Below are positions 5,652-48,367 of a DNA stretch of 64,000 nucleotides, piece after piece. The notes under the pieces were generated by a model. It saw nothing but the letters and a program-made list of their open reading frames with translations. It was not told where the DNA came from and ran no database searches. Origin of the DNA: an uncultured Bacilli bacterium (GTDB lineage: Bacteria > Bacillota_I > Bacilli_A > RF39 > UBA660); the NCBI GenBank assembly GCA_934096265.1, contig CAKOLI010000001.1, positions 77,512-141,511 of the forward strand, read 5' to 3'. Each line of letters opens with the position of its first letter. The stretch's first letter is position 1. The position numbers and the translations under genes were made by a program.

Positions 5652-5660
5652 ATTTTAAAA

Positions 5661-5783: not shown

Positions 5784-5879
5784 ACACATATAAATCTATA
5801 TTAGAGATATAGCTATTTTTAGCTTGTATTTTTAATGTAGATTTTTTTATATTTAAATAAAAGAAGGAGAGTGTTAAAC

Positions 5880-9958: not shown

Positions 9959-10325
9959 ACTAAATAATAAAGGACAAGTACTTGTTACTTTTATATGTAT
10001 GTTACCTATACTTATTGCTATTATAGGTGTAGTAGTGGATACTAATAACATGGTATATGAAAAAAGCAAATTAGAAAGTATAAATGTTCTGGCTACTACT
10101 TATTATAAAGAACATATAACAGATATAGACGTAACTAATAAAACAGTTGCTTTAATTAAGAAAAATGATAGTAATATTATTAATATAAATATAGATAAAA
10201 TTAATAAAAAAATATTATTAGATAAGAAAATAGATAGTATTTTTGGTAAAATTATAGGTATTAAAGAATATGAAATTGTAAGTATTTATACCTATCAAGA
10301 TGATATAATTAAAAGAGTAAAGTAG
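9951..10325 (+). CDS. TadE/TadG-like pilus assembly protein
   Basis: N-terminus [27 protein letters not shown]. Overlaps the upstream gene. Confidence 0.6.
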
Positions 10326-10333
10326 GTGTTAAT

Positions 10334-15119: not shown

Positions 15120-15182
15120 AACAAAAACCCCTTGTTTTATTGCTTAATATGTGGTATATTAAGTATCAGTTTATAAAAACAC

Positions 15183-15407
15183 ACGCGGAAGACGTAGTTA
15201 AAACAAATTATTCATAGAGAACTTTCAAATAGGTGAAAAGAAAGTAATAATCTTTAACTAAAATCACTTCCAATGTTTTTAATTGATATGTAAATTAAAA
15301 CGGCAGTACCGTTATAACTATTAAGAGCGTAGATAATTCTATGAATTTAAGGTGGTACCGCGGAAAGTATAGTTCGTCCTTATACATAATTGTATAAGGA
15401 TTTTTTT
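15183..15407 (+). promoter_or_regulatory. T-box riboswitch, Ile specifier
   Basis: AGAGA and GGTGAAAA stem-I motifs. Candidate specifier is AAA-AUC-A at 15263-15265, just before the CUUCC/GGAAG base helix. T-box sequence AATTTAAGGTGGTACCGCGG. Terminator TCCTTATACA/TGTATAAGGA plus T7. Confidence 0.9.
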
Positions 15408-31923: not shown

Positions 31924-32024
31924 TATATAAAAAATATATAAATCTATATTAGGGATATAGCAATTTTGCTATATTCTTTGATATAGATTTTTTATGTTTA
32001 TTAAAAGAAGGAGAGTATCATAAT

Positions 32025-32422
32025 ATGGATAATAATAAAAGAGTATACTTAATAATAGGAGTAATAACTATCACTATGCTAATAATGGGAGTAACCACTG
32101 CGTGGTTTACTTGGAATAGTAGCATTAATACAGATGTAACATTTAATGTAGAAGGGTTAGATATTACTTATACAGGAGATGAAAATGTTCTAAATAAAAA
32201 GCTATATCCTACAGCATCTATGACTAATACAGATAATGTAATACATAAATTTAGTTTAGTAACTACATCTAATCTAGTTTAGTACAAATAACAACTAATA
32301 TTAATCAACTTGATTTACTTTGCTTTAAAGGAAAAATAAAAAATAAGTTATTTAATTTAAATCTAACTGGAAAAGAAAATATTGATTATAATCTAAATGT
32401 TATAATATCAATTAATATATAA
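32025..32422 (+). pseudogene. short frameshifted paralogue of the 5880..7664 gene (TasA-signal N-domain only)
   Basis: The first ~35 codons are nearly identical to 5880... (MDNNKRVYLIIGVITITMLIMGVTTAWFTW). TAG at 32280. The reading frame continues after a 1-nt shift as ...QITTNINQLDLLCFKGKIKNKLFNLNLTGKENI... to a TAA at 32420-32422. There is no FGE-like domain. Confidence 0.6.
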
Positions 32423-32502
32423 TATAAGTAGTGTCCTCGGTTTGGTATTGTAACGGCAAGTAATTTTTTTAAGTATTTTTAATTAAAGGTTATGAAATTA
32501 GT

Positions 32503-32528
32503 AAAGATATGTTTAGTTGCATATCTTT
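32503..32528 (+). other. 9-bp inverted repeat just upstream of the mob gene (candidate oriT hairpin)
   Basis: AAAGATATG-TTTAGTTG-CATATCTTT, 35 nt upstream of the relaxase start codon. Confidence 0.3.
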
Positions 32529-32563
32529 TTCGCTATGCATATTAAGAAAGAGAGAAATGGTAA

Positions 32564-33849
32564 ATGAATTTAAATTATGCAATATTTAGAAGTCAACCAA
32601 TCATGACTATAAATAATTTGGCTGGAATAGGTTCTCATAACAAAAGAGAAAAACAGTCATATAAATCTAATCCAGATATTAAAAAAGAAATATCTAGTAA
32701 TAATATGGAATTAGTACCTCTAACATAAAAATATGTTAGAGGTTTTTATAATAAGACAATCGACTATAAAAAAGAATTTGAAGAAAGAATGAAAACAGAG
32801 AGGGAAGATGGGAAAAGAACATTTAGAGAAATGTTAGATAAAAGCAAAAATGTAGTTGCGGATGAACTTTTATTTACTGCAACTAATACTTTCTTTAAAG
32901 ATATGACAAGAGAAGATATAAAAGTTTGGGCTGATACTTGTATAGACTTTGTCTATAATGATTTAGGTTATACGAAATATCAGATATTACATGCAACAAT
33001 ATACTTGGATGAGAAAACTCCACATATTCATTGTGTATTAATCCCAATTGCAAAAAAGTTAGATAAAAGGAGTAATTCTGAAAGATATGCTATTTCAAAG
33101 AAACAATATATTAAAGACAAAAATCATTTATCCGAGTTGCAAGATAAGTATCATAAGAGATTAATTGGTAAAGGATATGATTTAGAAAGAGGAATTAAAA
33201 ATTCTGATAATGAAAATATTAATATAAAAGAGTTCAAAAAGATAACTAGAAAATTAAATAATGAACTAAATGTTAAAAATGAAAGATTAAATAAATCGCT
33301 CGAGGCTTTTAATGAGAAAATGAAAACACTTGTTAAATAAAGAGTATGTAAAAATAAAGAAAGATACTTTTGATAGTATGAACAATGTTATCAAAGAGTC
33401 TAAAAAAGTTATGGATATGCAACCTAAGTTAAATTATAGTTATAAAGAAATAGATTATTGCTCTTATAGTTATAGAAGTATAGAAAGACAGAAAAATAAT
33501 TTAGAAAATGAGATAGAATATTTGCAGTATAAGAATGAAAAGTTGGAAAATGAAAATAGAACTTTAAAAAACAAAAAAAAGCTATTTTAAAGGCAATAAA
33601 AACGTTTTTTAGACAGATACTATTATATTTGGTAATGATAAGGCAAAAGAAGCAACTACTAACGAAATAATAGCACATTATGATAATAAAAACTTTACTA
33701 GAAAAGATGTAGTTAATATATCATTAGATACTACAAAGGAAGATGAGTTATTTAATTATGTTGGAGTTGAAAAAGAATATGTTCGAATGAAACATTCGGA
33801 ATTAGATTATGATAGTAAGGGAAAAGATGATTTTGAATTAAGTAGATAA
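32564..33849 (+). pseudogene. MobV (Mob_Pre, pMV158 MobM-like) relaxase, decayed
   Basis: N-terminus MNLNYAIFRSQPIMTINNLAGIGSHNKRE. In-frame TAA at 32726-32728. Metal motif HATIYLDEKTPHIHCVLIP (HxDE...PHxH). Frame changes near 33330 and 33590 (track ORFs 32789..33340 and 33330..33590). Confidence 0.7.
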
Positions 33850-33884
33850 ATGTTAAAATAGTCAACATTTATTTAAAAAATCTA

Positions 33885-33912
33885 TTGACAAATATTAAAA
33901 GTATGCTAAAAT
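33885..33912 (+). promoter_or_regulatory. strong sigma-A promoter of the island operon
   Basis: TTGACA (33885-33890), 16 nt, TGCTAAAAT extended -10 (33904-33912). Confidence 0.7.
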
Positions 33913-33942
33913 ATAATTTAATTAATTTGAGGAGGAGACCGC

Positions 33943-34089
33943 ATGAAAAAAGATTCTGTAATGGAATTATTAGATTTAATCAAAAAAATCAGTGCTAGGA
34001 ATAAATATTATACTAACATTATTTACTCATGTTCTCTTTTAGACATAATTAGTAATAAGATAATAACGGTGACCAAAATTACATTATAA
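33943..34089 (+). CDS. 48-codon leader or small ORF
   Basis: GAGGAGG SD 7 nt before the ATG. Reads MKKDSVMELLDLIKKISARNKYYTNIIYSCSLLDIISNKIITVTKITL. Its stop codon lies inside the loop of the downstream terminator hairpin. Confidence 0.4.
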   Translation: MKKDSVMELLDLIKKISARNKYYTNIIYSCSLLDIISNKIITVTKITL

Positions 34090-34120
34090 TATAGTGTTTT
34101 TTGGCACCGATTATTTTTTT
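34067..34120 (+). terminator. intrinsic terminator/attenuator between the promoter and the RSH gene
   Basis: CGGTGACCAAAA (34067-34078) pairs with TTTTTTGGCACCG (34097-34109), giving 11 bp with one bulge. ATTATTTTTTT follows. Confidence 0.6.
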
Positions 34121-34137
34121 ATTTAGGAGGTGTTTTA

Positions 34138-35577
34138 GTGAATAATATTACGTTACAAGATTTACTAGAAAAATTAAAGGAATACAATCCAGATGAAATA
34201 GAGATTGTAAAAAAAGCTTATAATTATGCTGATAATTTACATTCTGGGCAAATGAGACAAAGTGGCGAACCATATATTAGTCATCCATTAAATGTTGCAT
34301 ATATTTTGGCAGATATGCATGCAGATAGAGATACAATATGTGCTGGTCTTTTACATGATACATTAGAAGATACTAACATCACAAAAGAGGATATCGCTCA
34401 TGATTTTAATCAAAATGTTGCCAATTTAGTTGATGGTGTAACAAAATTATCAAAAATGAATTTTTCTTCTAAACAAGATCAAAATTATGCAAATACAAGA
34501 AAAATAATAACAGGTATAACGGAAGATGTAAGAATAATTATAATTAAATTGGCTGATAGACTTCATAACATGAGAACATTACAATTTAAATCGGAATTTA
34601 AGCAAAAAGAAAATGCACTTGAAACTATGGAAATATTTGTTCCACTTGCTTATTATATAGGTGCTTATAGAATAAAATCAGAGTTAGAGGATTTATCATT
34701 ACAATATCTTAAACCGGATATGTATAAAAAAATAACTGAGAGAAAAATGAGATTGGAAGAATCAAGTGATGAGTGTTTAAAAGAAATGCTATATAAGATT
34801 GAAGCATTGCTAAATGCTAAAAATATACCAAATGAGATAAAGATAAGGACAAAGAATATTTATGGCATATACAAAAGACTAAATGAAGGTCATAAATTAT
34901 CTGATATTCATGATTTGTTAGCACTTAAAATAATGGTTGATGAAGTGGCGAATTGCTATTATACATTGGGGATGATTCATAAAGAATATCATCCAATAAA
35001 TGATAAATTCAAAGATTATATCTGTAATCCAAAAACAAACATGTATCAAAGCTTACATACAACTGTATTTGGACCTGATGATAGATTAGTTCAAACTCAA
35101 ATAAGAACATTTGATATGGATAAAGTAGCATCATTTGGATTGACAGCATATTGGGATGAACAAAAAGGAAAAGCAAGGGATGTAATGCAAGAGGATTTGA
35201 AACAAAAATTTCAATTCTTTAAATCACTAACTGAAATAAATTCTATGTTTGGTGATAACCAACAATTTGTTAATCAAGTAAAGACTGAACTATTTGCTGA
35301 TAGAGTTTACGTTTATACGACAAAAGGTGACATAATAGAATTACCTAAAGGAGCTACACCAATAGATTTTGCATATAAGATACATACTGATATAGGAAAT
35401 ACAATGGTTGGAGTATTTGTAAATGACGAATTTGTGCCAATTGATTATGTGTTGAAAAATAAGGATAGAGTTAGAATTGTTACTGATGAATTATCTTTTG
35501 GCCCTAGAGAAGATTGGATAGATAAAGCTCAAACGAGCTTAGCTAAAAGAAAAATAAGGGATTTTAATAAAAAGTAA
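34138..35577 (+). CDS. truncated long RelA/SpoT homologue (HD hydrolase + synthetase-like + TGS; no C-terminal regulatory domains)
   Basis: HD motifs GQMRQSGEPYISHP, LHDTLEDT and KLADRLHNMRT are intact. The synthetase region has RTKNIYGIYKRL, DLLALKIMV, NPKTNMYQSLHTTV and VQTQIRT (Gln where canonical ExQIRT has Glu). TGS segment VYVYTTKGDIIELPKGATPIDFAY. GTG start after AGGAGG. Confidence 0.85.
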   Translation: MNNITLQDLLEKLKEYNPDEIEIVKKAYNYADNLHSGQMRQSGEPYISHPLNVAYILADMHADRDTICAGLLHDTLEDTNITKEDIAHDFNQNVANLVDGVTKLSKMNFSSKQDQNYANTRKIITGITEDVRIIIIKLADRLHNMRTLQFKSEFKQKENALETMEIFVPLAYYIGAYRIKSELEDLSLQYLKPDMYKKITERKMRLEESSDECLKEMLYKIEALLNAKNIPNEIKIRTKNIYGIYKRLNEGHKLSDIHDLLALKIMVDEVANCYYTLGMIHKEYHPINDKFKDYICNPKTNMYQSLHTTVFGPDDRLVQTQIRTFDMDKVASFGLTAYWDEQKGKARDVMQEDLKQKFQFFKSLTEINSMFGDNQQFVNQVKTELFADRVYVYTTKGDIIELPKGATPIDFAYKIHTDIGNTMVGVFVNDEFVPIDYVLKNKDRVRIVTDELSFGPREDWIDKAQTSLAKRKIRDFNKK

Positions 35578-35586
35578 GGAGGAAGT

Positions 35587-36447
35587 ATGAATAATAATAT
35601 TATAATGGCTATTGCTGAAGAAATTTCTGCATTAATTCCAGATTGTTGTGGAGTTACTTTGGGTGGCTCTAGAATGAATGAATTAGAAGATGAAAAATCA
35701 GATGTAGAAATGTATTTTTATACACATAAAGGAGCACCTTCAGTAGATAGCATAACAAAAGCGTTATCAAAATTTAATGCACAACATAAAAGAACTGATA
35801 CTTTTTTATGGGAAAATGATATGCCATGGGGACCACATTCTTTCTTTGTAATTGACGGTTTATATTTTGAAATTGGATATAGGAACATTGATAATATTAA
35901 AAATAGAATTATTTTTTACGAAGAAGGAAATGTTGCTCCTATTCAAGATTGCCATGACTTAGGATTAGGTTATATGCCTAGTGGATTAGCAGCGTCAGTA
36001 GCTTCTGAAAAAATTTTAATTAAAGAGTCAAGGGAATTGTTAGAATTAAAAGAAGTGGCTATGTCATTTTCAAAAAAATTGTTTTTTGATTTAAAAGAAG
36101 AATATTTTGAAACAGCAAGATCATTGATAGATGGTAAACTTTTATCAGCGACTGAAAGAGCAGATATTTTCTTATATGAATCAATATCTGGAAGAATAAT
36201 TAGATGCTTGATGGTAATGGCTTTTGCAATGGGAAATAAACACTTTCCAGGGGATAAGTGGAATGAGGTGCTATTATTAAGAACCGATTGGAAAAATAAA
36301 GAAGAATTTTTAAATTTGTTAAAAGAACATTTACTATTTAAAGCAACAACAAAAGAAGAATTTATTAATAAAAGAAATATTTTGTATAAAGCATTTAAAT
36401 TAATTGAAATGGATACAGCTGAGGTGGATAATGGGGAAATTATATAA
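35587..36447 (+). CDS. Pol-beta-superfamily nucleotidyltransferase (DUF4037-like architecture)
   Basis: LGGSRMNELEDEKSDVEMYFY fits the hG[GS]x9-13Dh[DE]h NTase signature. A helical C-terminal domain follows. Confidence 0.65.
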   Translation: MNNNIIMAIAEEISALIPDCCGVTLGGSRMNELEDEKSDVEMYFYTHKGAPSVDSITKALSKFNAQHKRTDTFLWENDMPWGPHSFFVIDGLYFEIGYRNIDNIKNRIIFYEEGNVAPIQDCHDLGLGYMPSGLAASVASEKILIKESRELLELKEVAMSFSKKLFFDLKEEYFETARSLIDGKLLSATERADIFLYESISGRIIRCLMVMAFAMGNKHFPGDKWNEVLLLRTDWKNKEEFLNLLKEHLLFKATTKEEFINKRNILYKAFKLIEMDTAEVDNGEII

Positions 36448-37447
36448 TAATTCATTGTCTTTTGTAAATGATTGGAAAGAACCAACAAATGACGATATAA
36501 TGAAAAGCAGGTTAGAATCAAAGAAAATTAGTGTGGTAATACCTGTCTATCATCCTAGATATTTAAAAGAAGTATTAATGCATTTGTCTAAATTAGGATT
36601 TATTTATGAAGTAATTACAGTTTTTGATAGTCATGATGATAATTCTAATTTAATTATAGATGATTATAAATTTAAATTACTTATAGTTCAACATGACAAA
36701 AATCGTAATGCACCTGCTGCTAATAATACAGGAGCTACTTATGCTACAGGAGATATTATTTTATTTTTAGATCAGGATATGATTTTATCACCTAAATTTA
36801 TATCTAATGCATTAAATTTATTATATGTAAATCAATATAAAGGTCTGGTAGTTGGCTTTAGGGATACAGTGAATTATGAAAATGTTCCTGATTTATTAAA
36901 TTGGAAAGAATCTTCTTATTCTAATGATTGGAGAATTAAAACACTTATTAGTGATGAATATTTAGATTTAACTGTTTCTAATTGTGGGACTTCATCTAAT
37001 AATTGTAATACAGGAAAAATCTTAGAAATTTATAAGCAAAGTAATAAGTTTAGAAATTTAGGTATAAAAAAAGAATCGACTATTGGATTTTGGGATTTGG
37101 CTTGTATGGTAATATCACATACATTAGCAATTCCAAGACAAGAATTTATTGATATAGGTGGATTCCCAGAATGGATTATTGGTTGGGGTGGAGAAGATAT
37201 TGCACTTGGTTTCTTAGCAGTGTCAAAACATCTCTTTGTCATCCCAGTAGAAGTTGGCTCATATCATATAAAACATGATCCACATAGTGGTAGCGAAGAA
37301 AAAAAATGGCAAGAAATGCGTGAAAACTTAAAAAAATATAAATCTTGGACTTTGTCAATAGATGAATTTCAACCTATAGCTGAAAATGCAATCAAAAAAA
37401 GAGCAAAAATTTTATTTGATTCTTCAAAAAATAAATTTTATGAATAA
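36431..37447 (+). CDS. GT-A fold glycosyltransferase (family 2-like with WGGED C-terminal motif)
   Basis: ISVVIPVYH..., GDIILFLDQDMIL (DxD) and GWGGEDIALGF. The ATG at 36431 after GAGGTGG overlaps the upstream stop. Confidence 0.8.
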   Translation: MGKLYNNSLSFVNDWKEPTNDDIMKSRLESKKISVVIPVYHPRYLKEVLMHLSKLGFIYEVITVFDSHDDNSNLIIDDYKFKLLIVQHDKNRNAPAANNTGATYATGDIILFLDQDMILSPKFISNALNLLYVNQYKGLVVGFRDTVNYENVPDLLNWKESSYSNDWRIKTLISDEYLDLTVSNCGTSSNNCNTGKILEIYKQSNKFRNLGIKKESTIGFWDLACMVISHTLAIPRQEFIDIGGFPEWIIGWGGEDIALGFLAVSKHLFVIPVEVGSYHIKHDPHSGSEEKKWQEMRENLKKYKSWTLSIDEFQPIAENAIKKRAKILFDSSKNKFYE

Positions 37448-37463
37448 AGGAATGATTTAAATT

Positions 37464-38381
37464 ATGGAAAAAGAATTATTATTTCAACATATAATAAATG
37501 ATTATGATATAAAAGGAAAAATATCTTCATCTAAGATAAATTCATTTGAACAATATCCTCATATTTTTAGACTAAAATCCAATAATCGTTCTTTCTTTAT
37601 AAAACAAGTAGAAAAAAATAGAATTAATTGTGAAGATCTTAATGTATTATATTCAGATTTAACAAATATAACTTGTATTGAAAAACCTATTCTTACAAAA
37701 GAAAAAAAATATGTATCACTATTTGCTGATAAAATAATTCTTTTATATGAAGAATTAGAACAAATAGAAAAAAATCCAGATTCAATATGGTGGTCTAAAT
37801 GTTTAAGTAATATTCATAATATATGTGTAAATAACAGATATATGGCTTATTTTCAAAATAATTTTTATAAACAAACAATCGATTTACTGAATAGTGCTAA
37901 AAAATTTATGGAGCCTGAAATAGAAGAAAAAATTATAAAATTACTAATGGAATTAGATGATAAATGTTTAGAACTTAACAAAAATATAGTCTTATGTCAT
38001 AATGATCCTTATGATCTTAATGTAATGGCTATTAATGGTGAATATAGATTAATTGATACAGATGGAATGGGACTATCTCCAAAAGAGTATGATATTCAAA
38101 GATTAATGTGGAATCATTTAATTAATTCAAATGAAGTAGATAATTCGCTTTCTTTTTGGTGTTCATTTAAAGATAATTATGAATTAAATGTAATTGAAAA
38201 AATAGATACTAATTTATTAAAACAATTATATATTTTAGATTTAATAAGAACAACTTCTTGGTTGTACATTGTTTGTAATGATTTAACAAGGAAAGATATA
38301 GAAAGACAAAAAGAACAATTAAACTTATTTGAAAGAAGCTTTTACAATGATAATCACGCAAAAATTCTAAAAAAAATATAA
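37464..38381 (+). CDS. APH/choline-kinase/CotS-family phosphotransferase
   Basis: Brenner motif VLCHNDPYDLNV (HxDxxxxN) followed by LIDTDG. Confidence 0.75.
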   Translation: MEKELLFQHIINDYDIKGKISSSKINSFEQYPHIFRLKSNNRSFFIKQVEKNRINCEDLNVLYSDLTNITCIEKPILTKEKKYVSLFADKIILLYEELEQIEKNPDSIWWSKCLSNIHNICVNNRYMAYFQNNFYKQTIDLLNSAKKFMEPEIEEKIIKLLMELDDKCLELNKNIVLCHNDPYDLNVMAINGEYRLIDTDGMGLSPKEYDIQRLMWNHLINSNEVDNSLSFWCSFKDNYELNVIEKIDTNLLKQLYILDLIRTTSWLYIVCNDLTRKDIERQKEQLNLFERSFYNDNHAKILKKI

Positions 38382-38394
38382 CGGGGTCTTTAGT

Positions 38395-39273
38395 ATGAAA
38401 GGAATAATATTAGCTGGAGGGAAAGGTACACGGCTTTATCCTTCTACAATTGCTGTGTCAAAACAATTATTACCAGTTTATGATAAACCAATGATTTATT
38501 ATCCGTTATCAGTTTTGCTTATGCTTGAAATAAAAGATATTTTAATAATTTCAACAAAAAAAGATATAACTAATTATAGATATTTACTGGGAGACGGGAA
38601 AAAACTCGGTATTAATATCTCATATAGTGTTCAAAAGGAAGCAAGAGGAATAGTTGATGCATTTATTATAGGTAAACAATTTATTGGAAAAGATAATGTG
38701 TGTTTAATCTTGGGGGATAATATATTTTATGGTGATGATTTATCAAAAATTTTAAATAAGGCAAAAATAGAAAATGAAGGAGCAACTATATTTGGTTATC
38801 GTGTAAAAAAACCAGAAAATTTTGGAGTTGTTCAATTAGATGCAAGTGGTAAAGTAGTATCAATAGAGGAAAAACCAAAAAATCCTCAATCAAATTATGC
38901 TATTCCAGGGTTATATTTTTATAATAATGATGTAATAAAAATTTCAAAGCAGATTGAAATGTCTGAAAGAAAAGAACTTGAAATTACATCACTTAATAAT
39001 GAATATTTGAAAAATAATAATTTAAAAATTCAAATATTGGATGAGGATAATTTTTGGATTGATGCTGGAACTTCAAATAATTTATTAGAAGTATCAAATT
39101 TTGTTAAAAATTTTCAATTAAAACAAAAAAAGTATATAGCTTGTATTGAAGAAATCTCGTGGAAAAATGGATTTATAAATAATAAACAACTAAAAAAAGA
39201 AGCGGAGAAATTAAGTTGCACAGATTATGGTAAATATATATTTTCAATTTTGGGAGACGATAGTAGTGAGTAA
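38395..39273 (+). CDS. rfbA: glucose-1-phosphate thymidylyltransferase
   Basis: MKGIILAGGKGTRLYPSTIAVSKQLLPVYDKPMIYYPLS is a near-textbook RmlA N-terminus. Confidence 0.92.
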   Translation: MKGIILAGGKGTRLYPSTIAVSKQLLPVYDKPMIYYPLSVLLMLEIKDILIISTKKDITNYRYLLGDGKKLGINISYSVQKEARGIVDAFIIGKQFIGKDNVCLILGDNIFYGDDLSKILNKAKIENEGATIFGYRVKKPENFGVVQLDASGKVVSIEEKPKNPQSNYAIPGLYFYNNDVIKISKQIEMSERKELEITSLNNEYLKNNNLKIQILDEDNFWIDAGTSNNLLEVSNFVKNFQLKQKKYIACIEEISWKNGFINNKQLKKEAEKLSCTDYGKYIFSILGDDSSE

Positions 39274-40285
39274 ATTTTTAATAACAGGTGGAGCTGGATT
39301 TATAGGAACTAATTTTTTACATTATGCAGTAAATAAATATCCAACAGATTTTTTTGTCTGTGTAGATTCATTAACATATGCTGGAAATTATAATAATATA
39401 AAGGAATTAGAAACAAAAGAAAATTATAAATTTTATAAAATTGATATAAGAAATCAGGAAGATATATTAGAATTATTTATAAGTGAAAAATTTGATTATG
39501 TTATTAATTTCGCAGCTGAATCTCATGTTGATAATTCTATAAAAAATCCTAATATATTTGCTGAAACAAATATATTAGGTACTATGACTTTGCTTAATGC
39601 AACAAGACATATGAATGAAAATACTGAATATCATATTCAAAGATTCCATCAAGTGTCAACAGACGAAGTATATGGTGATTTACCACTTAATAGATTAGAT
39701 TTAAAATTCAATGAAAATAGTAAAATTATAACATCTAGTCCATATTCAGCATCTAAGGCAGGAGCAGATTTACAATTGCTAGCTTATTTTAAAACATATA
39801 ATTTGCCAATAACAATTTCTAGATGTTCAAATAATTACGGTCCATATCAACATCCAGAAAAGTTAATTCCATTAGTAATAAAGAATGCTATCAACAATAA
39901 AAATATACCTGTTTATGGAACAGGTGCTAATATAAGAGATTGGATACATGTGTATGATCATAATGTGGCGATTGATTTAATTGTTAGAAACGGAAAAAAT
40001 GGTGAAATATACAATATAGGTGGTAACACTGAAAAAAACAATTTAGAAGTTGTAAAAACAATTTTAAAATATTTAAATAAAAATGAAAATTTAATTACTT
40101 TTGTTAAAGATAGACCAGGACATGATAAAAGATATGCTATGAATACAACTAAAATTGAAGAAAAACTTGGATGGAAATGCAAATATAATTTTGAAGATGG
40201 TATTAATGAAACAATTGAGTGGTATTGTAATAATCTTAATTGGTTAAATAATTTTAAAATGGAGAAATGCAATGAAGAAAAATAA
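39266..40285 (+). CDS. rfbB: dTDP-glucose 4,6-dehydratase
   Basis: ITGGAGFIGTNF Rossmann motif, SPYSASKAGADL (YxxxK) and STDEVYGD. GTG at 39266 overlaps the rfbA stop. Confidence 0.9.
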   Translation: MSKFLITGGAGFIGTNFLHYAVNKYPTDFFVCVDSLTYAGNYNNIKELETKENYKFYKIDIRNQEDILELFISEKFDYVINFAAESHVDNSIKNPNIFAETNILGTMTLLNATRHMNENTEYHIQRFHQVSTDEVYGDLPLNRLDLKFNENSKIITSSPYSASKAGADLQLLAYFKTYNLPITISRCSNNYGPYQHPEKLIPLVIKNAINNKNIPVYGTGANIRDWIHVYDHNVAIDLIVRNGKNGEIYNIGGNTEKNNLEVVKTILKYLNKNENLITFVKDRPGHDKRYAMNTTKIEEKLGWKCKYNFEDGINETIEWYCNNLNWLNNFKMEKCNEEK

Positions 40286-41381
40286 TAATGATATCATTGT
40301 TAATGTTACTAAATCATATTTGCCACCATTAGAAGAATATGTTAATGAAATATCAATATTGTGGGAAAATCATTATTTAACTAATTATGGACAATTAAAT
40401 AATAAATTAGTTAATGATATTAAGAATTATTTAAAATTAGATAATATACATTATGTTACCAATGGAACAATATCTTTACAATTAGCTATAAATGCACTGA
40501 ATATAGAATCTGGTGAAATAATAACAACACCGTTTACATATATTGCAACATTATCATCAATATTATGGCAGAGATGTACACCTGTTTTTGTAGATATTAA
40601 TGAGAAAGATTTTAATATTGATGTAACAAAGATTGAAAAAAAGATAACTACTAATACGAAAGCTATAATGGCTGTTCATTGTTTTGGGATTCCTTGTAAT
40701 GTGGTAGAAATTGATAATATTGCTAAAAAAAATAATTTAAAAGTAATATATGATGCAGCACATTCTTTTGGTACTATGCTCAATAATAAATCAGTATTAA
40801 GTTATGGCGATATATCATGTTGTAGCTTTCATGCAACTAAAGTTTTTCACACTATTGAAGGTGGACTCTGTGTTGTTAATAATGATAATGTGAATAAAAA
40901 AATGGAAGCAATAAAAAAATTTGGAATGGAAGATGGAAAATTTGCATACATAGGATTAAATGCGAAAAATTCTGAATTACATGCTGCAATGGGACTTTGT
41001 GTGCTAAGGCATATAGACGAGATAATAAAAATGAGAAAAAGTAAATTCGAATTATATAAAAAAAGTATATCAGATAAAATATATATACCTACATTACCAC
41101 AAAATTTTAAATATAATTATATTTATTTTCCAGTAGTATTTTCAAATGAAAGTCAATTGCTTTTAACTCTAAAACTTTTAAATCAAAAAAATATTTTTCC
41201 AAGAAGATATTTTTATCCATGTGTTAATAGTGCTTCATATATTCAGAAAAGTTATGAGACTCCAATAGCTGAAAGTCTTTCAAAAAGAATTATTTGTCTT
41301 CCATTAGATACTTATATTTCGAATGAAAAAATTATTGAAATTTGCAACATTATTAATAGGGTTATAGAATCTGAAAATTAG
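40272..41381 (+). CDS. DegT/DnrJ/EryC1/StrS-family PLP sugar aminotransferase
   Basis: 369 aa with the SFHATK PLP-lysine motif. Overlaps the rfbB stop. Confidence 0.85.
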   Translation: MKKNNNDIIVNVTKSYLPPLEEYVNEISILWENHYLTNYGQLNNKLVNDIKNYLKLDNIHYVTNGTISLQLAINALNIESGEIITTPFTYIATLSSILWQRCTPVFVDINEKDFNIDVTKIEKKITTNTKAIMAVHCFGIPCNVVEIDNIAKKNNLKVIYDAAHSFGTMLNNKSVLSYGDISCCSFHATKVFHTIEGGLCVVNNDNVNKKMEAIKKFGMEDGKFAYIGLNAKNSELHAAMGLCVLRHIDEIIKMRKSKFELYKKSISDKIYIPTLPQNFKYNYIYFPVVFSNESQLLLTLKLLNQKNIFPRRYFYPCVNSASYIQKSYETPIAESLSKRIICLPLDTYISNEKIIEICNIINRVIESEN

Positions 41382-41458
41382 ATATAATTAAAAATAATAA
41401 TAAACTAAATAAAAAATTAAGTTATTTTAACAAAACTGATTAAAATTTAATCAAAAAG

Positions 41459-41486
41459 TTGACAAAACAAGATTTAATGCTATAAT
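41459..41486 (+). promoter_or_regulatory. consensus sigma-A promoter for ValRS copy 1
   Basis: TTGACA (41459-41464), 16 nt, TGCTATAAT (41478-41486). There is no T-box between it and the ATG at 41521. Confidence 0.7.
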
Positions 41487-41520
41487 AAACAGAAATCTAA
41501 AAATTTAAGGGGGAATACTC

Positions 41521-44010
41521 ATGTTAGGCAAAAGATTTAATCTTGAAAATGAAAAGGAAATGCAAAAATTATGGGAAGAAAAAGAAGCCTATAAATTTAA
41601 AGGTGTAGATGAACGACCAGTTTATTCAGTCGATACACCTCCTCCAACAGTAAGCGGTAAGTTACATGTTGGACATATATTTTCATTCACTCAATCTGAA
41701 ATGCTTGTTAGGTATCACAGATTAAAAGGTGAAAATGTATATTATCCATTTGGATTTGATGACAATGGTTTGCCAACAGAAAGATTGGTTGAAAGAGAAG
41801 AGGGTATATTTGCAAAAGATTTACCTAGAAGTGAATTTATTGAAAAATGTACTGCTACAAAAGATAAATATATTAAAGAATTCCAAGATTTATTTAAGCG
41901 TTTAGGAATCAGTGCTGATTGGGATTTGGGATATGATACTATAAATGAATTGTCTAGAAAAGTTTCACAAAGATCATTTATAGATTTAGTAAAAAAAGGA
42001 AAAGCGTATAGAAAGGAAATGCCAGTTTTATGGTGTCCTTGCTGCCAAACTTCTATTGCACAAGCAGAACTTGAAAATAAAGATGTAAAAAGTTATTTCA
42101 ATTATATTAATTTTTCTGTTGATAATAAAGATTTAGAAATAGCTACAACAAGACCTGAGTTTTTAGGTGGATGTGTTGCAATATTTGTAAATCCTAATGA
42201 TGAAAGATATAAAGATTTAATAGGAAAAACTGCTACTGTTCCGTTATATAATAATCAAGTTCCAATCATTGCAGATGAAAAAGTTGCAATAGACAAAGGT
42301 ACTGGCGCTGTTATGTGCTGTACATTTGGAGATCAAACTGATATGGAATGGCAAAAAGAATATAATCTTCCAATTAAGAAAGTAATGCAGGCTGATGGAA
42401 CAATTAATCCAGAAGTTGCTATAATTGGTGGAATGAAAACGCTTGATGCAAGGATGAAGATTGTTGAAAAATTACAAAAACAAGGTCTATTAGTAAAAAG
42501 TGAAAAAATTGAACATTCTGTAAGTACGCATGAGAGATGTGGAAATGAAATAGAAATAATTAATTCTCCACAATGGTACATTGACATTTTAAGTATAAAA
42601 GATGAATTGATTAAAGCAGCAGATGAAATTAATTGGCATCCAGAATCTATGAAAACTAGATATTTAGATTGGGTTAGCAATTTAAAATGGGATTGGTGCA
42701 TATCAAGGCAAAGATATTTTGGAGTACCATTTCCAGTATGGTATTGTAAAGAATGTGGAGATGTAATGATTTCTGAAGATAAAGAATTACCATTAAATCC
42801 ATTAGAACATAACCCACATGGTGCTTGTAAGTGTGGATGTAAGGAATTTATACCTGAAACTGCTGTAATGGATACATGGGCAACATCATCTGTATCACCA
42901 TTCATTAATATGAAATATGGTGAAGATGACGAAAGAAAATTTTTATATCCTATGAGTATGAGAAGCCATGCACATGAAATAATAAGAACGTGGACATTCT
43001 ATTCAATTGTAAAAAGTTTATATCATACTGGACAAGTACCTTGGAAAGATTTAATGATTTCAGGATTTGTACTTGCTAAAAAAGGCGAGAAAATAAGCAA
43101 ATCTAAAAATAATGCTAAGATGTCTCCTAATGACTTATTAGATACTTATGGTGCTGATATGATAAGATATTGGACTGCATCAAATAAATTAGGAACAGAT
43201 ACATGGTTTGATACAAAAGATATAGAAAGTTCAAAGAGATTTATGAACAAATTATGGAATTCTGCTAAATTTGTAGATATACACATCAAGGATGCTGATT
43301 TAAGTGAAGAAGCAGAATTGCAATCTATTGATAAATGGTTAATCTCTAGATGTCACGAAACATTTGAAAAATATCAACAACAAATGGAAAATTATGAAAT
43401 GGGCTTAGCAAGACAAGAAATTGATAAATTTTTCTGGAACGATTTATGTGATAATTATTTAGAAATGGCAAAAGAAAGATTATATAATCCTGATAATAAA
43501 TATGGAGATTCCCAAAAAGCTGCTCAACAAACTTTAGCAACTGTATTCCTTGAAGTATTAAAAATGTATTCACCTTTTGTTCCACATATTACAGAATATA
43601 TTTATCAAGAATTCTATAAATCTAAACTTAAAGATGAACTTCTTTCTACAAGTAAATTCACAGAGTTACCTTATGATAAAAAATATATAGAATTTGGTGA
43701 TGCAATGAAAAAAGTAGTAGGAGATGTTCGTAAATATAAAACTGAACGTAATTTATCAATGAAAAAACCAATTGAAGAATTGAAAATATCAACGACATTG
43801 GATAATATTAGATGTTTAAGAGATTCAATTTTAGATATTCAAAGTTGTACTCGTGCTGAACATATTGACGTTGAGGAAAGTGATGAAACAGAAGTAACAA
43901 TTACTGGAAGAAATATTGAAGATAGTTACGTAGAAGATGCAATAGATGCACCAGTTCAAGAAGAAGCAAAAGTTATGAAACTTGTTAGAAAAGATAAGAA
44001 AAATCAATAA
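41521..44010 (+). CDS. valS: valine--tRNA ligase, copy 1 (PPPTVSG / CTFGDQTD type)
   Basis: 829 aa. DTPPPTVSGKLHVGHIFSF (HIGH), ATTRPE and GTGAVMCCTFGDQTD in CP1/editing, KISKSKNN (KMSKS), Zn cysteines and an acidic C-terminal tail. Confidence 0.85.
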   Translation: MLGKRFNLENEKEMQKLWEEKEAYKFKGVDERPVYSVDTPPPTVSGKLHVGHIFSFTQSEMLVRYHRLKGENVYYPFGFDDNGLPTERLVEREEGIFAKDLPRSEFIEKCTATKDKYIKEFQDLFKRLGISADWDLGYDTINELSRKVSQRSFIDLVKKGKAYRKEMPVLWCPCCQTSIAQAELENKDVKSYFNYINFSVDNKDLEIATTRPEFLGGCVAIFVNPNDERYKDLIGKTATVPLYNNQVPIIADEKVAIDKGTGAVMCCTFGDQTDMEWQKEYNLPIKKVMQADGTINPEVAIIGGMKTLDARMKIVEKLQKQGLLVKSEKIEHSVSTHERCGNEIEIINSPQWYIDILSIKDELIKAADEINWHPESMKTRYLDWVSNLKWDWCISRQRYFGVPFPVWYCKECGDVMISEDKELPLNPLEHNPHGACKCGCKEFIPETAVMDTWATSSVSPFINMKYGEDDERKFLYPMSMRSHAHEIIRTWTFYSIVKSLYHTGQVPWKDLMISGFVLAKKGEKISKSKNNAKMSPNDLLDTYGADMIRYWTASNKLGTDTWFDTKDIESSKRFMNKLWNSAKFVDIHIKDADLSEEAELQSIDKWLISRCHETFEKYQQQMENYEMGLARQEIDKFFWNDLCDNYLEMAKERLYNPDNKYGDSQKAAQQTLATVFLEVLKMYSPFVPHITEYIYQEFYKSKLKDELLSTSKFTELPYDKKYIEFGDAMKKVVGDVRKYKTERNLSMKKPIEELKISTTLDNIRCLRDSILDIQSCTRAEHIDVEESDETEVTITGRNIEDSYVEDAIDAPVQEEAKVMKLVRKDKKNQ

Positions 44011-44083
44011 AACTTATCTTTTTTTCTGCAATTTATCTAATTTTATTGAATATATAAGGAAAATCTGGTATAATATTTGCAAC

Positions 44084-44311
44084 TGCTGAGAACAAGAGGA
44101 GTAGATTACCAATTTATTATAGAGAGCAAATGTTTGGTGTAAATTTGCATAATAGGTAATTGAAGGTAGCTTGGGAGCATATTTTCTGAACTATTAGTAA
44201 GAAATTACGTATCGCTGCGTTAAAGCATTAAGCTGCATATTAATAAAATAATATGAATTAAGGTGGTACCGTGGACTTCAAGTTCATCCTTTGATTAGGA
44301 TGGGCTTTTTT
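44084..44311 (+). promoter_or_regulatory. T-box riboswitch, probable Val (GUA) specifier
   Basis: Promoter TTGAAT-17-TGGTATAAT (44046-44074). AGAGAG and GGTGTAAA stem-I motifs. Specifier loop UGAAG-GUA-G (GUA at 44166-44168) lies before the CUUG/CAAG helix. T-box GAATTAAGGTGGTACCGTGG. Terminator CATCCT/AGGATG plus a T run. Confidence 0.85.
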
Positions 44312-44332
44312 ATATGAAAGGAAGGAATTAAA

Positions 44333-46750: not shown

Positions 46751-46792
46751 TACCTATAAAATTAAATAATTGTAATAAGTTAGGGGATGTTT

Positions 46793-47475
46793 ATGATAAG
46801 CAACAATTCTAATTTTGGATATGATAAGTATCACAGAAAAAAACAATTAAAGAATTTAATTTAAATCAAACTATGTATTCTTTGGTAACAGGTGAAAGTA
46901 AAGATGATTTAGATTTAAAAGCAACAGGCTTTATGGGAAACAATATGAGTTATAATGATTTAATAATATCAGCAGACAAATTAGCCCAAGTCTTCTATAA
47001 TATTGGAATAAAAAATGGAGATAATGTGGCAATATTGACTATAAGTATGCCAATAGTTTAACAGTCATTGTTATCTCTTTCCAAAATTGGGGCTACTATG
47101 TCTTGGATAGACCTGAGATCTAAACCGAAAGATGTAGTAAGATACATTAATAGTAGTAATTGTAAAACAATAATAGTGTTTGAAGATATGCTTCCATTAA
47201 TAGAGCCAATAATAGATGAAAATGATGTCAAAAAAGTTGTGATAAGTTCACCAAAAAGATTATTTATCTCCTGTTGTTAAGATGCTAGCTACATTAAAAG
47301 GTAAGAAAGACGGTGAAAAAGTGGTATTAACAAAAATACGATTCCTATGTTAGAGGGTATTAAAATAGATGGTTATGCTATGATTAGACCAATATTAGCA
47401 CAGGGAAATATTATTGATTCTACTAAAAAAATAAAAAGATTAATATATAATAATAAAAAATCTTTAGATGTTTAA
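46793..47475 (+). pseudogene. adenylate-forming (AMP-binding) enzyme, decayed
   Basis: N-terminal acyl-CoA-ligase-like segments (track ORFs 46873..47061 and 47068..47280) share a frame and are split by a TAA at 47059-47061. A frameshift lies near 47270 (...PVVKMLATLKGKKDG...). The C-terminal tail IPMLEGIKIDGYAM is joined directly, so the central ~300 codons are missing. Confidence 0.6.
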
Positions 47476-47478
47476 GAT

Positions 47479-47910
47479 CTAATGATTTTTTATTATTTCA
47501 TCAACAGAACAATTAAAGTTTTTTGCTAATTTATAAATATAAACTGTTGGTATTAATATTATTCCTAATTCATATTGAGTATAAGCTGATACTGAAATTT
47601 TTAAAATTTTCGCAATCTCTTTTTGAGTTAGATTTACTTTTTTTCTTAATAAACGCAAATTATTTCCAATCACTTTGATAGTTATATTTTTAACTGGATA
47701 TTCAAAATTATTGATTTTTGACAGTCCAGTTATGTAATCAATGCTACATTTATAATAATTACTTAATAAAAATAATTTTCTTAGTGGAATTATATTAGTT
47801 CCTAATTCCCATCCTGTATATGTAGTTCTACTAACTCCCAATATTTTTGCTATTTCTTCTTGAGTTAGGCTGTTTTCTAATCTCAATTTTTTGATATTTT
47901 TGAACTTCAT
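47479..47910 (-). CDS. XRE-family regulator with two tandem HTH domains
   Basis: LTQEEIAKILGVSRTTYTGWELG and LTQKEIAKILKISVSAYTQYELG. Confidence 0.8.
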   Translation of the reverse strand: MKFKNIKKLRLENSLTQEEIAKILGVSRTTYTGWELGTNIIPLRKLFLLSNYYKCSIDYITGLSKINNFEYPVKNITIKVIGNNLRLLRKKVNLTQKEIAKILKISVSAYTQYELGIILIPTVYIYKLAKNFNCSVDEIIKNH

Positions 47911-47920
47911 ATTTTCTCCA

Positions 47921-48367
47921 TTAGTTTAAATCTTTGTCTTTAGTTCTACCAACTATCCAATCCATTGAAATTTTATATTTTTTGCATATAGTGTAGATAG
48001 TTATTGTGTTGACTAAGTAATTACCAGTTTCGTAACCACTATAAGTTGTTTGAGATATGTTACAATCATCTGCTAATTTTTGTTGTGAAATATTTAATTC
48101 TTTTCTTAAATTTTTTAAGTTTTTACCGATTTTATTTTTATCACACTCAATTTTAGGATATTTTTTATTTTTTCTTGTAAGACCGGAAATATAATCTAAT
48201 GAATAACCATATAAATTAGAAAATCTAATAAGTTTATTAAAAGGTATGGTATCACCAGCAGTCTCCCATCCTGAAATTGTTTGTTTTGTTACTCCAAAGA
48301 TGTATCCTAATTCTGTTTGAGTCATTTCTAATTCTTCTCTACAAAATTTTATATTGTTGTTATACAT
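47921..48367 (-). CDS. XRE-family regulator with two tandem HTH domains (paralogue)
   Basis: MTQTELGYIFGVTKQTISGWE and ISQQKLADDCNISQTTYSGYETG. Confidence 0.8.
   Translation of the reverse strand: MYNNNIKFCREELEMTQTELGYIFGVTKQTISGWETAGDTIPFNKLIRFSNLYGYSLDYISGLTRKNKKYPKIECDKNKIGKNLKNLRKELNISQQKLADDCNISQTTYSGYETGNYLVNTITIYTICKKYKISMDWIVGRTKDKDLN

Follow-up and report, generated by a model that had tools for sequence, protein, structure and literature searches.

In textbooks, amino-acid starvation is sensed by long RSH enzymes, and their C-terminal domains are thought to couple the enzyme to the ribosome. The DNA analysed here, a stretch of 64,000 nucleotides from an uncultured Bacilli bacterium that is referred to in full as the window, encodes an RSH protein that ends soon after its TGS domain and has a glutamine at the position of the glutamate in the ExQIRT motif of the synthetase site. 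This raises the question of which activity such a protein has kept, and by what means its output could be regulated.

Domains and active sites of the window RSH

34138..35577, + strand: RSH coding sequence (479 aa), GTG start with AGGAGG ahead of it, stop codon TAA at 35575-35577
34216..34653, + strand: HD (p)ppGpp pyrophosphohydrolase domain, residues 27-172 (Pfam HD_4, E = 5e-42)
34846..35157, + strand: predicted pseudo-synthetase (RelA_SpoT) domain, residues 237-340 (Pfam, alignment to B. subtilis Rel)
35305..35484, + strand: TGS domain, residues 390-449, followed by a helical tail of 30 residues (Pfam TGS, E = 3e-21)

Based on the Pfam matches, the protein has the layout of a long RSH, with HD_4 (27-172) followed by RelA_SpoT (237-340, E = 5e-29) and TGS (390-449). 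The TIGR00691 (spoT_relA) profile scored 531.6 bits against a cut-off of 499.2, with the match spanning only profile positions 1-451 of 687, and the SpoT equivalog NF008303 remained below its cut-off of 947 with 431.6 bits. The AlphaFold model (pLDDT 82) was superposed on the catalytic domains of S. aureus Rel with a target-normalised TM-score of 0.94 and an rmsd of 1.8 Å, and the nearest relatives among solved structures and in the databases were Firmicutes Rel proteins. Judged by its sequence, the window protein is a naturally truncated long RSH that consists of the HD domain, a pseudo-synthetase, a linker (Core) and TGS.

All HD catalytic residues are present (R40, H49, H73-D74, E77-D78, D140 and N144), corresponding to R44, H53, H77-D78, E81-D82, D144 and N148 of RelSeq. 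A preliminary description of this DNA had reported intact hydrolase signatures, and each motif that it quoted was found in place (RQSGEPYISHP at 40-50, LHDTLEDT at 72-79 and ADRLHNMRT at 139-147). The catalytic residues were invariant across 36 diverse short members of the family, and also in the close family. The window RSH should thus still degrade (p)ppGpp.

The synthetase domain gave a different picture. Alignment with B. subtilis Rel (PDB 6yxa) by phmmer had no gaps across the synthetase-motif region and placed Q319 (codon CAA, 35092-35094) on E324, so that the Glu-to-Gln change at ExQIRT, first aligned by eye, was upheld. This residue, E323 in RelSeq and E324 in B. subtilis, is the catalytic Glu that coordinates Mg. 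Of the other motifs, DLLALK (259-264) has K264 (codon 34927-34929) on the Arg of DxxAxR, and DKFKDY (289-294) has D289-K290 in the place of G-R of GRFKDY, both as originally described; they are joined by NPKTNMYQSLHTTV (297-310) and LVQTQIRT (317-324). The earlier statement that the nucleotide-binding residues are largely kept also held, as the G-loop residues K299, N301, Y303 and H307 are retained, and the full set of other ATP and GDP contacts (R237, K239, D259, K292, K299, N301, Y303, H307, Q321 and R323) is kept and invariant in the close family.

These changes were followed in the best 150 cluster representatives (50% identity) of the window RSH, in which proteins ending at most 30 aa from the query end were counted as short and proteins continuing more than 150 aa beyond it as long. 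The Glu was missing in 40 of 44 short proteins (34 Q, 4 K, 1 L and 1 H) and kept in 97 of 98 long ones. Lys replaced the Arg of DxxAxR in 32/44 short representatives versus 0/98 long ones, all 98 of which have R, and in gene copies from GTDB species genomes Q319 and K264 were invariant (80/80). The alignment columns that discriminate short from long proteins lie in the synthetase site and in the AHWxYK motif that follows it, which is conserved in long RSH and lost in the short clade; none lie in the HD domain. The link of truncation with loss of the Glu is far beyond chance. The synthetase domain of the window RSH probably cannot make (p)ppGpp, and the proposal of a hydrolase-only RSH is consistent with all of the sequence evidence, namely an intact HD site together with clade-wide replacement of the Glu and of the DxxAxR Arg.

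Docking of Rel on the ribosome depends on its helical, Zn-finger and RRM domains, which are required for its activation there by deacylated A-site tRNA. The C-terminal helical, ZFD (RIS/CC) and RRM (ACT) domains are absent from the window RSH. Its Pfam TGS match ends at residue 449 and the protein itself 30 residues later, at 479, which corresponds to about B. subtilis Rel residue 483; the end point had previously been put at about 70 aa after TGS, which is too far. The model has a helix at 467-478. ZFD and RRM are missing in every member of the short clade, whereas the long relatives bear RelA_RIS and ACT_4. No Rel-like domain was found in the ORF after the RSH gene, nor any coding remnant of a Rel C-terminus downstream, and DNA homology between loci ends at the RSH stop codon. 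The clade-wide absence of ZFD and RRM and this end of homology bear out the claim that a ribosome-sensing C-terminus is lacking, and the window RSH is probably unable to sense ribosomes.

Within TGS, a His (H420 in B. subtilis Rel, H416 in the query) reads the CCA end of tRNA. This His was kept in 97/97 long Rel proteins, in 18/40 short representatives and in 59/80 close relatives, with the window copy itself among those that retain it. This pattern looks like relaxed tRNA recognition in the short clade, and such partial conservation speaks against the suggested action on tRNA through TGS.

It appears improbable that the protein is still bifunctional, with Gln319 and Lys264 supporting a weak or differently regulated synthetase that would be the cell's (p)ppGpp source. 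The retained and invariant contact residues and the conservative size of the substitutions are in its favour, as is selection on the pseudo-synthetase that is as strong as on the HD domain (dN/dS of 0.089 and 0.076, respectively, compared to 0.11 for TGS and 0.11 overall). Gln is able to ligate Mg2+ and the other nucleotide-binding residues are conserved, so that the domain may retain some transferase chemistry, have an altered one or only sense nucleotides. However, other subclades carry K, L or H at this position, none of which is a carboxylate ligand, and the AHWxYK motif is also lost. In B. subtilis Rel, a substitution of the same Glu (E324V) is in experimental use as an inactive-synthetase allele (PMC7098656), and synthesis was compromised once ZFD and RRM were removed (PMC7797070).

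Conservation and distribution of the short clade

Among more than 120 clusters with at least 92% identity to the window RSH, all proteins are 478-482 aa long except one of 475 aa. The same stop position was shared by hundreds of clusters, with a length of 476-483 aa in nearly all. In a neighbour-joining tree without support values, the long sequences and the short sequences that lack the Glu lie on opposite sides of a single split, and the apparent unity of the short clade could be inflated by long-branch attraction. A profile search built from distant short members returned the window's own subfamily again. The short RSH proteins form a large and diverse clade in uncultured low-GC gut Bacilli and apparently an undescribed family. 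Gut metagenomes of humans and animals are rich in its members.

A decaying rel remnant, cut by a nonsense mutation and drifting, might be suspected from the reduced length, the changed catalytic residue and the adjoining mobile-element debris. What is known of selection and conservation effectively refutes this: the overall dN/dS, the shared stop position and the missing downstream remnant all stand against it, and truly decayed copies among the loci (L045 and L082) are split and frameshifted, unlike the window gene. The window gene is neither a pseudogene nor a one-off.

Two RSH copies were present in 6 of 74 assemblies, among them a closed genome of 1.54 Mb. When synthetase and HD HMMs were run over all ORFs of 84 loci and the window (about 1.4 Mb) in search of a second RSH or a synthetase, only the short RSH itself was returned. 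The nearest full-length Rel proteins, P0288 and P0140, lie in the canonical secDF-rel-hisS-aspS context and were considered as the rel genes of these lineages; the AspRS proteins there are only 50% identical to those of the short-RSH loci, so they come from other lineages.

A mobile-element or defence origin of the RSH gene was also considered and rejected. IMG/VR viral contigs contained no relatives, the best match in plasmid records had 46% identity with such matches being ordinary Rel genes, and PADLOC gave only weak domain-level matches, with no defence system beyond one weak domain match.

Leader and neighbouring genes

32789..33590, + strand: Mob_Pre (MobV-type) relaxase gene in fragments, close ahead of the promoter (Pfam)
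33885..33912, + strand: sigma-70-type promoter (TTGACA, 16-nt spacer, TG-TAAAAT) with an extended -10 TG, score 11/12
33943..34089, + strand: 48-codon leader ORF, MKKDSVMELLDLIKKISARNKYYTNIIYSCSLLDIISNKIITVTKITL, that has an SD of its own (GAGGAGGAG); seen in the sequence and a called gene on public contigs
34062..34123, + strand: intrinsic-terminator-like hairpin with a U tract, immediately ahead of the ribosome-binding site of RSH (sequence and fold)
35587..41381, + strand: co-directional cargo genes, starting 9 nt past the RSH stop (TAAGGAGGAAGTATG)
46873..47475, + strand: gene relics, with AMP-binding enzyme gene fragments and a thiE 3' end (broken ORFs; ThiE by Pfam)

The promoter is the best site in the region, and its TTGAC and TAAAAT boxes are conserved in an alignment of 78 leaders, 75 of which have an equivalent leader ORF. 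The leader peptides contain 7.6% Cys compared to a background of 1.3%, a six-fold enrichment, with Cys in 62 of 65 unique peptides, and TGY codons numbered 190 in frame versus 135 in the other two frames together. In the window the leader has one Cys codon only (TGT, 34030-34032), and its stop codon TAA (34087-34089) is located inside the terminator loop, between the 5' arm CGGTGACCAAAA (34067-34078) and the 3' arm TTTTGGCACCG (34099-34109), which is followed by ATTATTTTTTTATTT. A hairpin with dG of at most -10 kcal/mol and a U run was detected in 50/78 leaders versus 2/78 shuffles, and the terminator arms vary between loci yet remain complementary. At 47 of 48 loci the leader stop falls in the terminator loop, in the 5' arm or no more than 15 nt ahead of that arm, and the Cys codons lie at a median of 24 nt upstream of the hairpin. 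Between the leaders of the window and of locus L006 there is a frameshift, and the in-frame Cys codon and the stop position are still preserved. Two features of a leader attenuator are present, a promoter-proximal, Cys-enriched ORF that has its own SD and an intrinsic terminator before RSH. The RSH gene is always the first gene of the leader-RSH operon; the median gap is 310 nt upstream of it and 41 nt downstream, and the downstream gene is co-directional in 73/74 cases. Of the more distant short members, L088 carries a comparable short leader that includes a single Cys codon and L091 has no leader, which makes the leader a trait of the window's subfamily.

The stop-in-terminator geometry suggests that the ribosome itself could serve as antiterminator, and the direction in which the attenuator would work is read from this geometry only. 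If the ribosome moves along the leader without delay, it would melt the terminator and allow RNA polymerase to read into RSH and the cargo, whereas a ribosome stalled at the Cys codons would leave the terminator free to form. No antiterminator was evident in folds of the RNA ending at the terminator 5' arm. A long-range helix between the leader SD/AUG and the Cys-codon block occurred in minimum-free-energy folds, but with 12.7 pairs versus 8.2 in shuffled sequences, and was rejected. In Rfam there was no match to the leader (33300-34250, E ≤ 1); the rest of the window gave two T-boxes only. The Cys-rich peptide as precursor of a modified peptide, an idea suggested by the YcaO and C39-peptidase genes that follow RSH in one module, was likewise rejected: each RSH gene has the leader ahead of it regardless of the cargo, the peptides are not conserved in sequence and a frameshift is tolerated.

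The cargo genes of the window encode a 286-aa protein without family match, a GT2 glycosyltransferase, a 305-aa protein without significant family match, an RmlA-like protein, a dehydratase/epimerase and a DesI-like aminotransferase. This set was found behind RSH in only two other genome loci (L006 and L013), with different genes elsewhere. Further downstream, window positions 47321-47500 match the end of a YcaO/ThiE module that lies behind RSH in L010, L014, L017, L036, L039 and L078, and the AMP-binding and thiE relics are what is left of an earlier, now replaced cargo. On the upstream side, the Mob_Pre match of the window covers profile positions 74-196 of 196 only, and longer copies of 352-431 aa are located upstream of RSH in L006, L014 and L047. 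Recombination inside the RSH gene was examined as the cause of the cargo swaps and dismissed, as its 5' and 3' thirds had no clear mosaic signal. RSH identity tracks the upstream neighbour (0.86 vs 0.78) and hardly the downstream neighbour, which together with the lack of a mosaic signal places the breakpoints at or after the stop codon. The variable gene region thus has RSH at its upstream edge.

As the leader-plus-RSH unit is constant while the cargo varies, it could itself be the selected unit, with RSH as a regulatory pseudoenzyme that binds nucleotides or tRNA and controls its own operon. The position of RSH as first gene behind a conserved leader, the two copies per genome and the conserved pseudo-synthetase pocket agree with this, to which we nevertheless give a low probability. 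That the HD catalytic residues have stayed invariant over deep divergence points to catalysis as the function under selection, and the protein has no DNA- or RNA-binding domain besides TGS. In addition, L028 carries a copy of the leader without RSH (16565-16795), indicating that the leader is independent of the RSH protein in cis.

The variable and partly mobile surroundings, with Mob_Pre remnants and replaced cargo, also bear on the substrate. Small alarmone hydrolases neutralise toxic synthetases (PMC7229694), and the window RSH might similarly act on (pp)pApp, or on tRNA pyrophosphorylated at its CCA end, made by toxic small alarmone synthetases, in an immunity or repair role. The lack of a synthetase partner among the ORFs searched, the presence of two copies per genome and the retained TGS domain would fit such a role. 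We consider it unlikely, since the HD residues equal those of bona fide (p)ppGpp hydrolases and no toxin-like synthetase adjoins RSH in the 84 loci; the viral, plasmid and PADLOC results and the poor conservation of the TGS His point the same way.

Comparison with known systems and proposed function

In SpoT[Hs] of Moraxellaceae, for example SpoT of Acinetobacter baumannii (PDB 7QPR), an active HD domain is combined with a retained but inactive pseudo-synthetase domain, and the sequence pattern of the window RSH fits such a state. In the Acinetobacter protein, the hydrolase site has Core and TGS as its scaffold, and the pseudo-synthetase plays a regulatory part (PMC9974481). Unlike the window RSH, SpoT[Hs] has its full length, including helical, ZFD and RRM domains by which hydrolysis is fine-tuned, and a synthetase pocket that has undergone extensive remodelling; the pocket of the window RSH is almost intact, apart from one E to Q and two R to K changes. 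The window RSH falls outside the beta- and gamma-proteobacterial SpoT lineage, which has a full C-terminal region (NF008303 below its cut-off); its origin is independent of SpoT[Hs], with Firmicutes-type Rel as the nearest sequence relatives.

The truncation itself resembles RshC[HS] of Bacillus, an extra copy that is cut within the helical domain, with most of this domain and the CC (ZFD) and ACT (RRM) domains absent and TGS kept; RshC is classed [HS], has intact synthetase motifs and was found in six Bacillus strains only (Atkinson et al. 2011, PMC3153485). Compared by description, the two proteins share the truncation point within the helical domain and the retained TGS, and differ in that the window RSH has lost the synthetase Glu and belongs to uncultured low-GC gut Bacilli.

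In B. subtilis Rel, deletion of RRM and ZFD raised hydrolysis, as did the synthetase-dead D264G change, and removal of the whole C-terminal region including TGS nearly abolished it, so that hydrolysis requires TGS and the linker (PMC7797070). The window RSH unites both engineered changes, loss of ZFD/RRM and a dead synthetase, in a natural protein, although it ends at about B. subtilis residue 483 and the engineered construct, derived from a bifunctional enzyme, at 583.

The leader is similar to classical leader-peptide attenuators and to mycobacterial polycysteine short-ORF attenuators; in the latter, ribosome progress on an upstream ORF with Cys codons reports the cysteine supply (10.1101/834739). 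The mycobacterial elements are leaderless and translational, unmasking a ribosome-binding site, and turn on Cys-metabolism genes when Cys is scarce. In contrast, the window leader has its own SD, its ORF ends inside an intrinsic terminator and the first regulated gene is RSH, a geometry that suggests the opposite sign, on when translation is unimpeded.

On balance, we lean slightly towards the window RSH being a dedicated, ribosome-independent alarmone hydrolase, a (p)ppGpp 3'-pyrophosphohydrolase, with its output set by attenuation at the Cys-codon leader. The dead synthetase and TGS are under strong purifying selection and would have been retained as scaffold and allosteric parts that keep the hydrolase competent, because such parts have this role in Acinetobacter SpoT and in the experiments with truncated and synthetase-dead B. 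subtilis Rel. Control would have shifted to the transcript, with a strong promoter and a Cys-enriched leader ORF that ends in or just before the terminator hairpin, so that hydrolase output would go up with plentiful charged tRNA(Cys) and translation capacity and go down on starvation. A plain housekeeping hydrolase leaves the two copies per genome and the variable downstream cargo unexplained.

The best reading is that the window RSH joins the known hydrolase-only state of Acinetobacter SpoT with the known truncation of Bacillus RshC. New are the two copies in 6/74 assemblies, the locus-specific downstream genes, and the promoter, Cys-rich leader and terminator on nearly every copy. As a more speculative picture, to which we assign little probability, reduced-genome gut Bacilli would have alarmone control without a ribosome-bound RSH: the ribosome on the Cys leader would sense starvation in cis and set the level of a synthetase-dead but constitutively active hydrolase, and several such units per genome would tie cargo operons to one signal. 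In a stronger form, these genomes may be without any (p)ppGpp synthetase and the hydrolase may have a different substrate.

The short clade has dropped the synthetase chemistry and the ribosome-binding half and has kept the hydrolase, the pseudo-synthetase and TGS. Since the parts kept are the minimal hydrolysis set from the SpoT and Rel experiments, nature supplies in this clade a test of that model. Should the leader function in the way that its geometry implies, starvation sensing would have moved from the protein to the mRNA, and the leader would offer a concrete handle on alarmone physiology in uncultured RF39-like Bacilli.

The truncated RSH and its short relatives

Based on profile searches and an alignment with Rel of solved structure, the preliminary description of a truncated RelA/SpoT homologue (RSH) with an altered synthetase was confirmed, in its domains, its alignment and a pattern that runs through the family. 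The gene and its Pfam domains are:

34138-35577 (+), RSH coding sequence, GTG start with AGGAGG ahead of it, 479 aa
residues 27-172, HD_4
residues 237-340, RelA_SpoT
residues 390-449, TGS

The NCBIfam RelA/SpoT model scored above its cut-off, with only profile positions 1-451 of 687 covered, and the protein terminates 30 residues past the TGS domain, not about 70 as first estimated. All the hydrolase motifs quoted earlier were found. The top match among solved structures was Bacillus subtilis Rel (6yxa; query 4-479 on chain 7-483), and the alignment was gap-free around the synthetase motif. The proposed Glu-to-Gln change in ExQIRT proved correct, as Q319 (codon CAA, 35092-35094) aligns with E324, of which E324V is an 'inactive synthetase' allele (PMC7098656). 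K264 aligns with the Arg of DxxAxR and D289-K290 with the G-R of GRFKDY. The fold is predicted to be ordinary, since the AlphaFold model (pLDDT 82) superposes on the catalytic domains of S. aureus Rel (target-normalised TM-score 0.94, rmsd 1.8 A).

The 150 nearest relatives among 1.84 billion cluster representatives were aligned and sorted by their continuation past the end of the query, the short class ending at most 30 aa from it and the long class continuing more than 150 aa further.

Residues at two synthetase positions in short and long relatives
Short (n=44): catalytic Glu position, 34 Q, 4 K, 1 L, 1 H, 4 E; DxxAxR Arg position, 32 K, 7 R, 5 other
Long (n=98): catalytic Glu position, 97 E, 1 K; DxxAxR Arg position, 98 R

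In a neighbour-joining tree a single split parted all short sequences lacking the Glu from all long ones; the unity of this clade is provisional, because the tree carries no support values. The four short sequences with the Glu were placed among the long ones and are probably fragments. The best discriminating columns (R264K, E319Q, S243G, H338Y and loss of Y341 and K342 of the AHWxYK motif) all lie within or directly after the synthetase domain, and the only differing HD column is a conservative V-to-I at position 133. The HD catalytic residues were invariant in 36 diverse short members with about 40% mutual identity. The short RSH is thus a family and not an accident.

Closer relatives were sought in one genome per species of the Genome Taxonomy Database (GTDB) with exact 8-residue words, and 80 of 117 confirmed matches were kept. 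These 80 loci, with 73-99% identity to the RSH, are spread over 74 assemblies with titles such as 'uncultured Bacilli bacterium', 'Tenericutes', 'Mycoplasma sp. CAG:472', 'CAG:611' and 'Candidatus Aphodocola' and a mean GC of about 26%; a further cluster carries the name Clostridium sp. CAG:710. Q319 and K264 were invariant and the HD motifs retained in all 80 genes. Nei-Gojobori dN/dS was 0.11 over the full gene and, by domain, 0.076 (HD), 0.089 (pseudo-synthetase) and 0.11 (TGS), so the dead synthetase domain is constrained as much as the live HD domain. Real pseudogenes in this family look different: locus L045 of another genome has, 4 kb upstream of an intact copy, a decayed second one (4580-6054; ORFs of 215 and 178 aa) preceded by a leader of its own, and in locus L082 the RSH (9989-11431) is broken by a frameshift (173 + 294 aa).

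A hydrolase-only reading of the retained domains

The suggestion that the protein is hydrolase-only is the reading best supported by sequence, with invariant HD residues, replacement of the Glu and the DxxAxR Arg, and precedents in Rel and SpoT. When RRM and ZFD are deleted step by step from B. subtilis Rel, hydrolysis goes up and synthesis is impaired; hydrolysis is also elevated in the synthetase-dead D264G, and it is almost lost once only the N-terminal domains are left (PMC7797070). For SpoT of Acinetobacter, a hydrolase-only enzyme, the HD active site is scaffolded by Core and TGS, with a regulatory role for the pseudo-synthetase (PMC9974481). Exactly these parts (HD, pseudo-synthetase, Core and TGS) remain in the short RSH. 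In TGS, the tRNA CCA end is read by a His (H420 in B. subtilis, H416 in the query) that all 97 long Rel have but that is found in no more than 18 of the 40 short representatives and 59 of the 80 close relatives, and this poor retention argues that TGS may serve as a scaffold rather than as a tRNA reader. No (p)ppGpp synthetase, small or long, was found besides the RSH in the 1.4 Mb of loci searched. Support for a mobile-element role and for a defence role was also sought, and none was found.

Both features of the protein are known separately, the hydrolase-only state from the long SpoT of Moraxellaceae and truncation inside the helical domain from RshC of six Bacillus strains, although RshC is described as keeping the synthetase motifs. 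A limited literature search gave no account of a clade with both features, of its copy number or of its leader. Jimmy et al. (2020) distinguish 13 long-RSH subfamilies, unnamed in the main text, and the short clade may already be classified among them.

A cysteine-rich leader ahead of the gene

Upstream of the RSH and its own SD lie, in this order:

33885-33912, near-consensus promoter
33943-34089, leader ORF of 48 codons with its own SD
34067-34078 and 34099-34109, arms of a hairpin followed by a U tract

The same arrangement was repeated at other RSH loci. A hairpin of -10 kcal/mol or below with a U run was found in 50 of 78 leaders compared to 2 of 78 shuffled controls, and its arms vary in sequence by locus with complementarity kept. 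The leader peptides are unconserved overall and rich in Cys (7.6%, background 1.3%): of the 65 unique peptides 62 carry one or more and 46 carry two or more, often as CSC, CAC, CC or longer runs, and TGY triplets number 190 in frame against 135 in the other two frames together. A frameshift in the first third separates the leader of the window from that of L006, a related locus, yet the two share a Cys codon in frame and the place of the stop, the mark of selection acting on translation and not on the peptide.

At 47 of 48 strong-hairpin loci the leader stop codon falls in the loop, in the 5' arm or no more than 15 nt ahead of that arm, and the median distance from the last Cys codon downstream to the arm is 24 nt. 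From these positions we infer that ribosomes may control termination. On reaching the leader end a ribosome would cover the terminator, whereas stalling at the Cys codons would leave it free, which is the sign that we infer for the response to stalling. Short ORFs with Cys codons act as attenuators in mycobacteria (10.1101/834739), but the mechanics differ. No antiterminator was found in folds of the leader, a predicted helix from SD/AUG to the Cys block was not clearly above the shuffle control, and Rfam gave no match to the leader.

In one subgroup (the window and loci L006, L010, L011, L014, L015, L017, L018, L021, L025 and L065) the middle of the peptide is conserved, roughly as S-[AV]-[RK]-N-x-Y-x-T-N-x-I-Y-S-C. 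This could be a ribosome-arrest motif, instead of or besides a Cys-codon sensor, and is here inseparable from nucleotide conservation. Leader-profile matches occurred only ahead of RSH genes or decayed copies, with a single exception at locus L028 (16565-16795). There, 5 kb 3' of the RSH, the leader of that locus occurs a second time, its peptide MAKVFKEINFIISKNINVKYNCGFNFGCACLNIENSWR identical, ahead of genes for 219-aa and 227-aa proteins and with no RSH after it. Among more distant short members, L088 has a similar short leader and L091 has none.

Variable cargo and copy number

DNA similarity among loci extends from about 24 nt ahead of the start codon to the stop codon, and the flanking genes vary. 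The RSH is typically first in an operon (median gaps of 310 nt upstream and 41 nt downstream), and of 74 genes that follow it 73 are co-directional; in the window its stop codon overlaps the SD of the following gene (TAAGGAGG). RSH identity tracks the upstream neighbour (0.86 in pairs sharing it, compared to 0.78) and hardly the downstream one. The cargo downstream is highly diverse, and recurrent modules include:

C39-like peptidase, YcaO and ThiE
radical SAM enzymes, cysteine desulfurase and U32 peptidase
CysD and a CysN-APS kinase fusion
PLP enzymes and MetRS
ArgRS and SDR (short-chain dehydrogenase/reductase)
TyrRS-like and AsnA-like proteins (judged by eye)

The window has sugar-nucleotide/glycosyltransferase genes and then two valS genes. 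Relics of an AMP-binding gene and of the 3' end of thiE follow (46873-47475). Since the thiE relic corresponds to the end of the YcaO/ThiE module that comes after the RSH at other loci, the present cargo has replaced an older one.

Other features were observed in the window. The stretch 32000-47000, with a GC skew of about +0.23 (near 0 over the preceding 28 kb), has Mob_Pre fragments at its left border and gene relics, two XRE-type regulator genes and an insertion-sequence remnant at its right, and resembles a rearranged island of distinct composition that includes the RSH. Features within it and elsewhere in the window are:

5871-7664, 597-aa ORF without Pfam or NCBIfam match
15174-15384, T-box leader (105.3 bits) ahead of ileS (15425-18511)
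32025-32282, 85-aa ORF of the same cluster as the 597-aa ORF, apparently a truncated copy of it at the island's left edge
41521-44010, 44079-44294, 44333-46750, two complete valS (valine-tRNA ligase) genes in tandem, about 69% identical in DNA, both above the NF009687 cut-off, with a T-box leader (146.7 bits, Rfam) only at the second
47479-48367 (-) and 49061-50076 (-), adjacent genes, each a double helix-turn-helix (XRE-like) regulator by eye, followed by two ORFs resembling, by eye, a broken transposase (integrase-core-like C-terminus; helix-turn-helix N-terminus)

Nucleotidyltransferase-like G-S...D-x-D proteins without a good family match recur immediately 3' of the RSH in otherwise unrelated cargo (window 35587-36447; L069 9932-10867; L020 10464-12290; L045 16780-17424), and PADLOC gave only weak matches to minimal nucleotidyltransferase models.

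Two RSH copies, 76-93% identical to one another, were present in at least six assemblies, and in the closed 1.54-Mb genome OZ007038.1 they lie about 340 kb apart; copy numbers are lower bounds, because of the exact-word requirement of the scan and because 80 of the 117 matches were kept. A simple housekeeping hydrolase does not account for two or more copies in a 1.5-Mb genome, each heading different, replaceable cargo. The interest of the clade beyond the known hydrolase-only RSH lies in the size of the family, the number of copies per genome and the leader.
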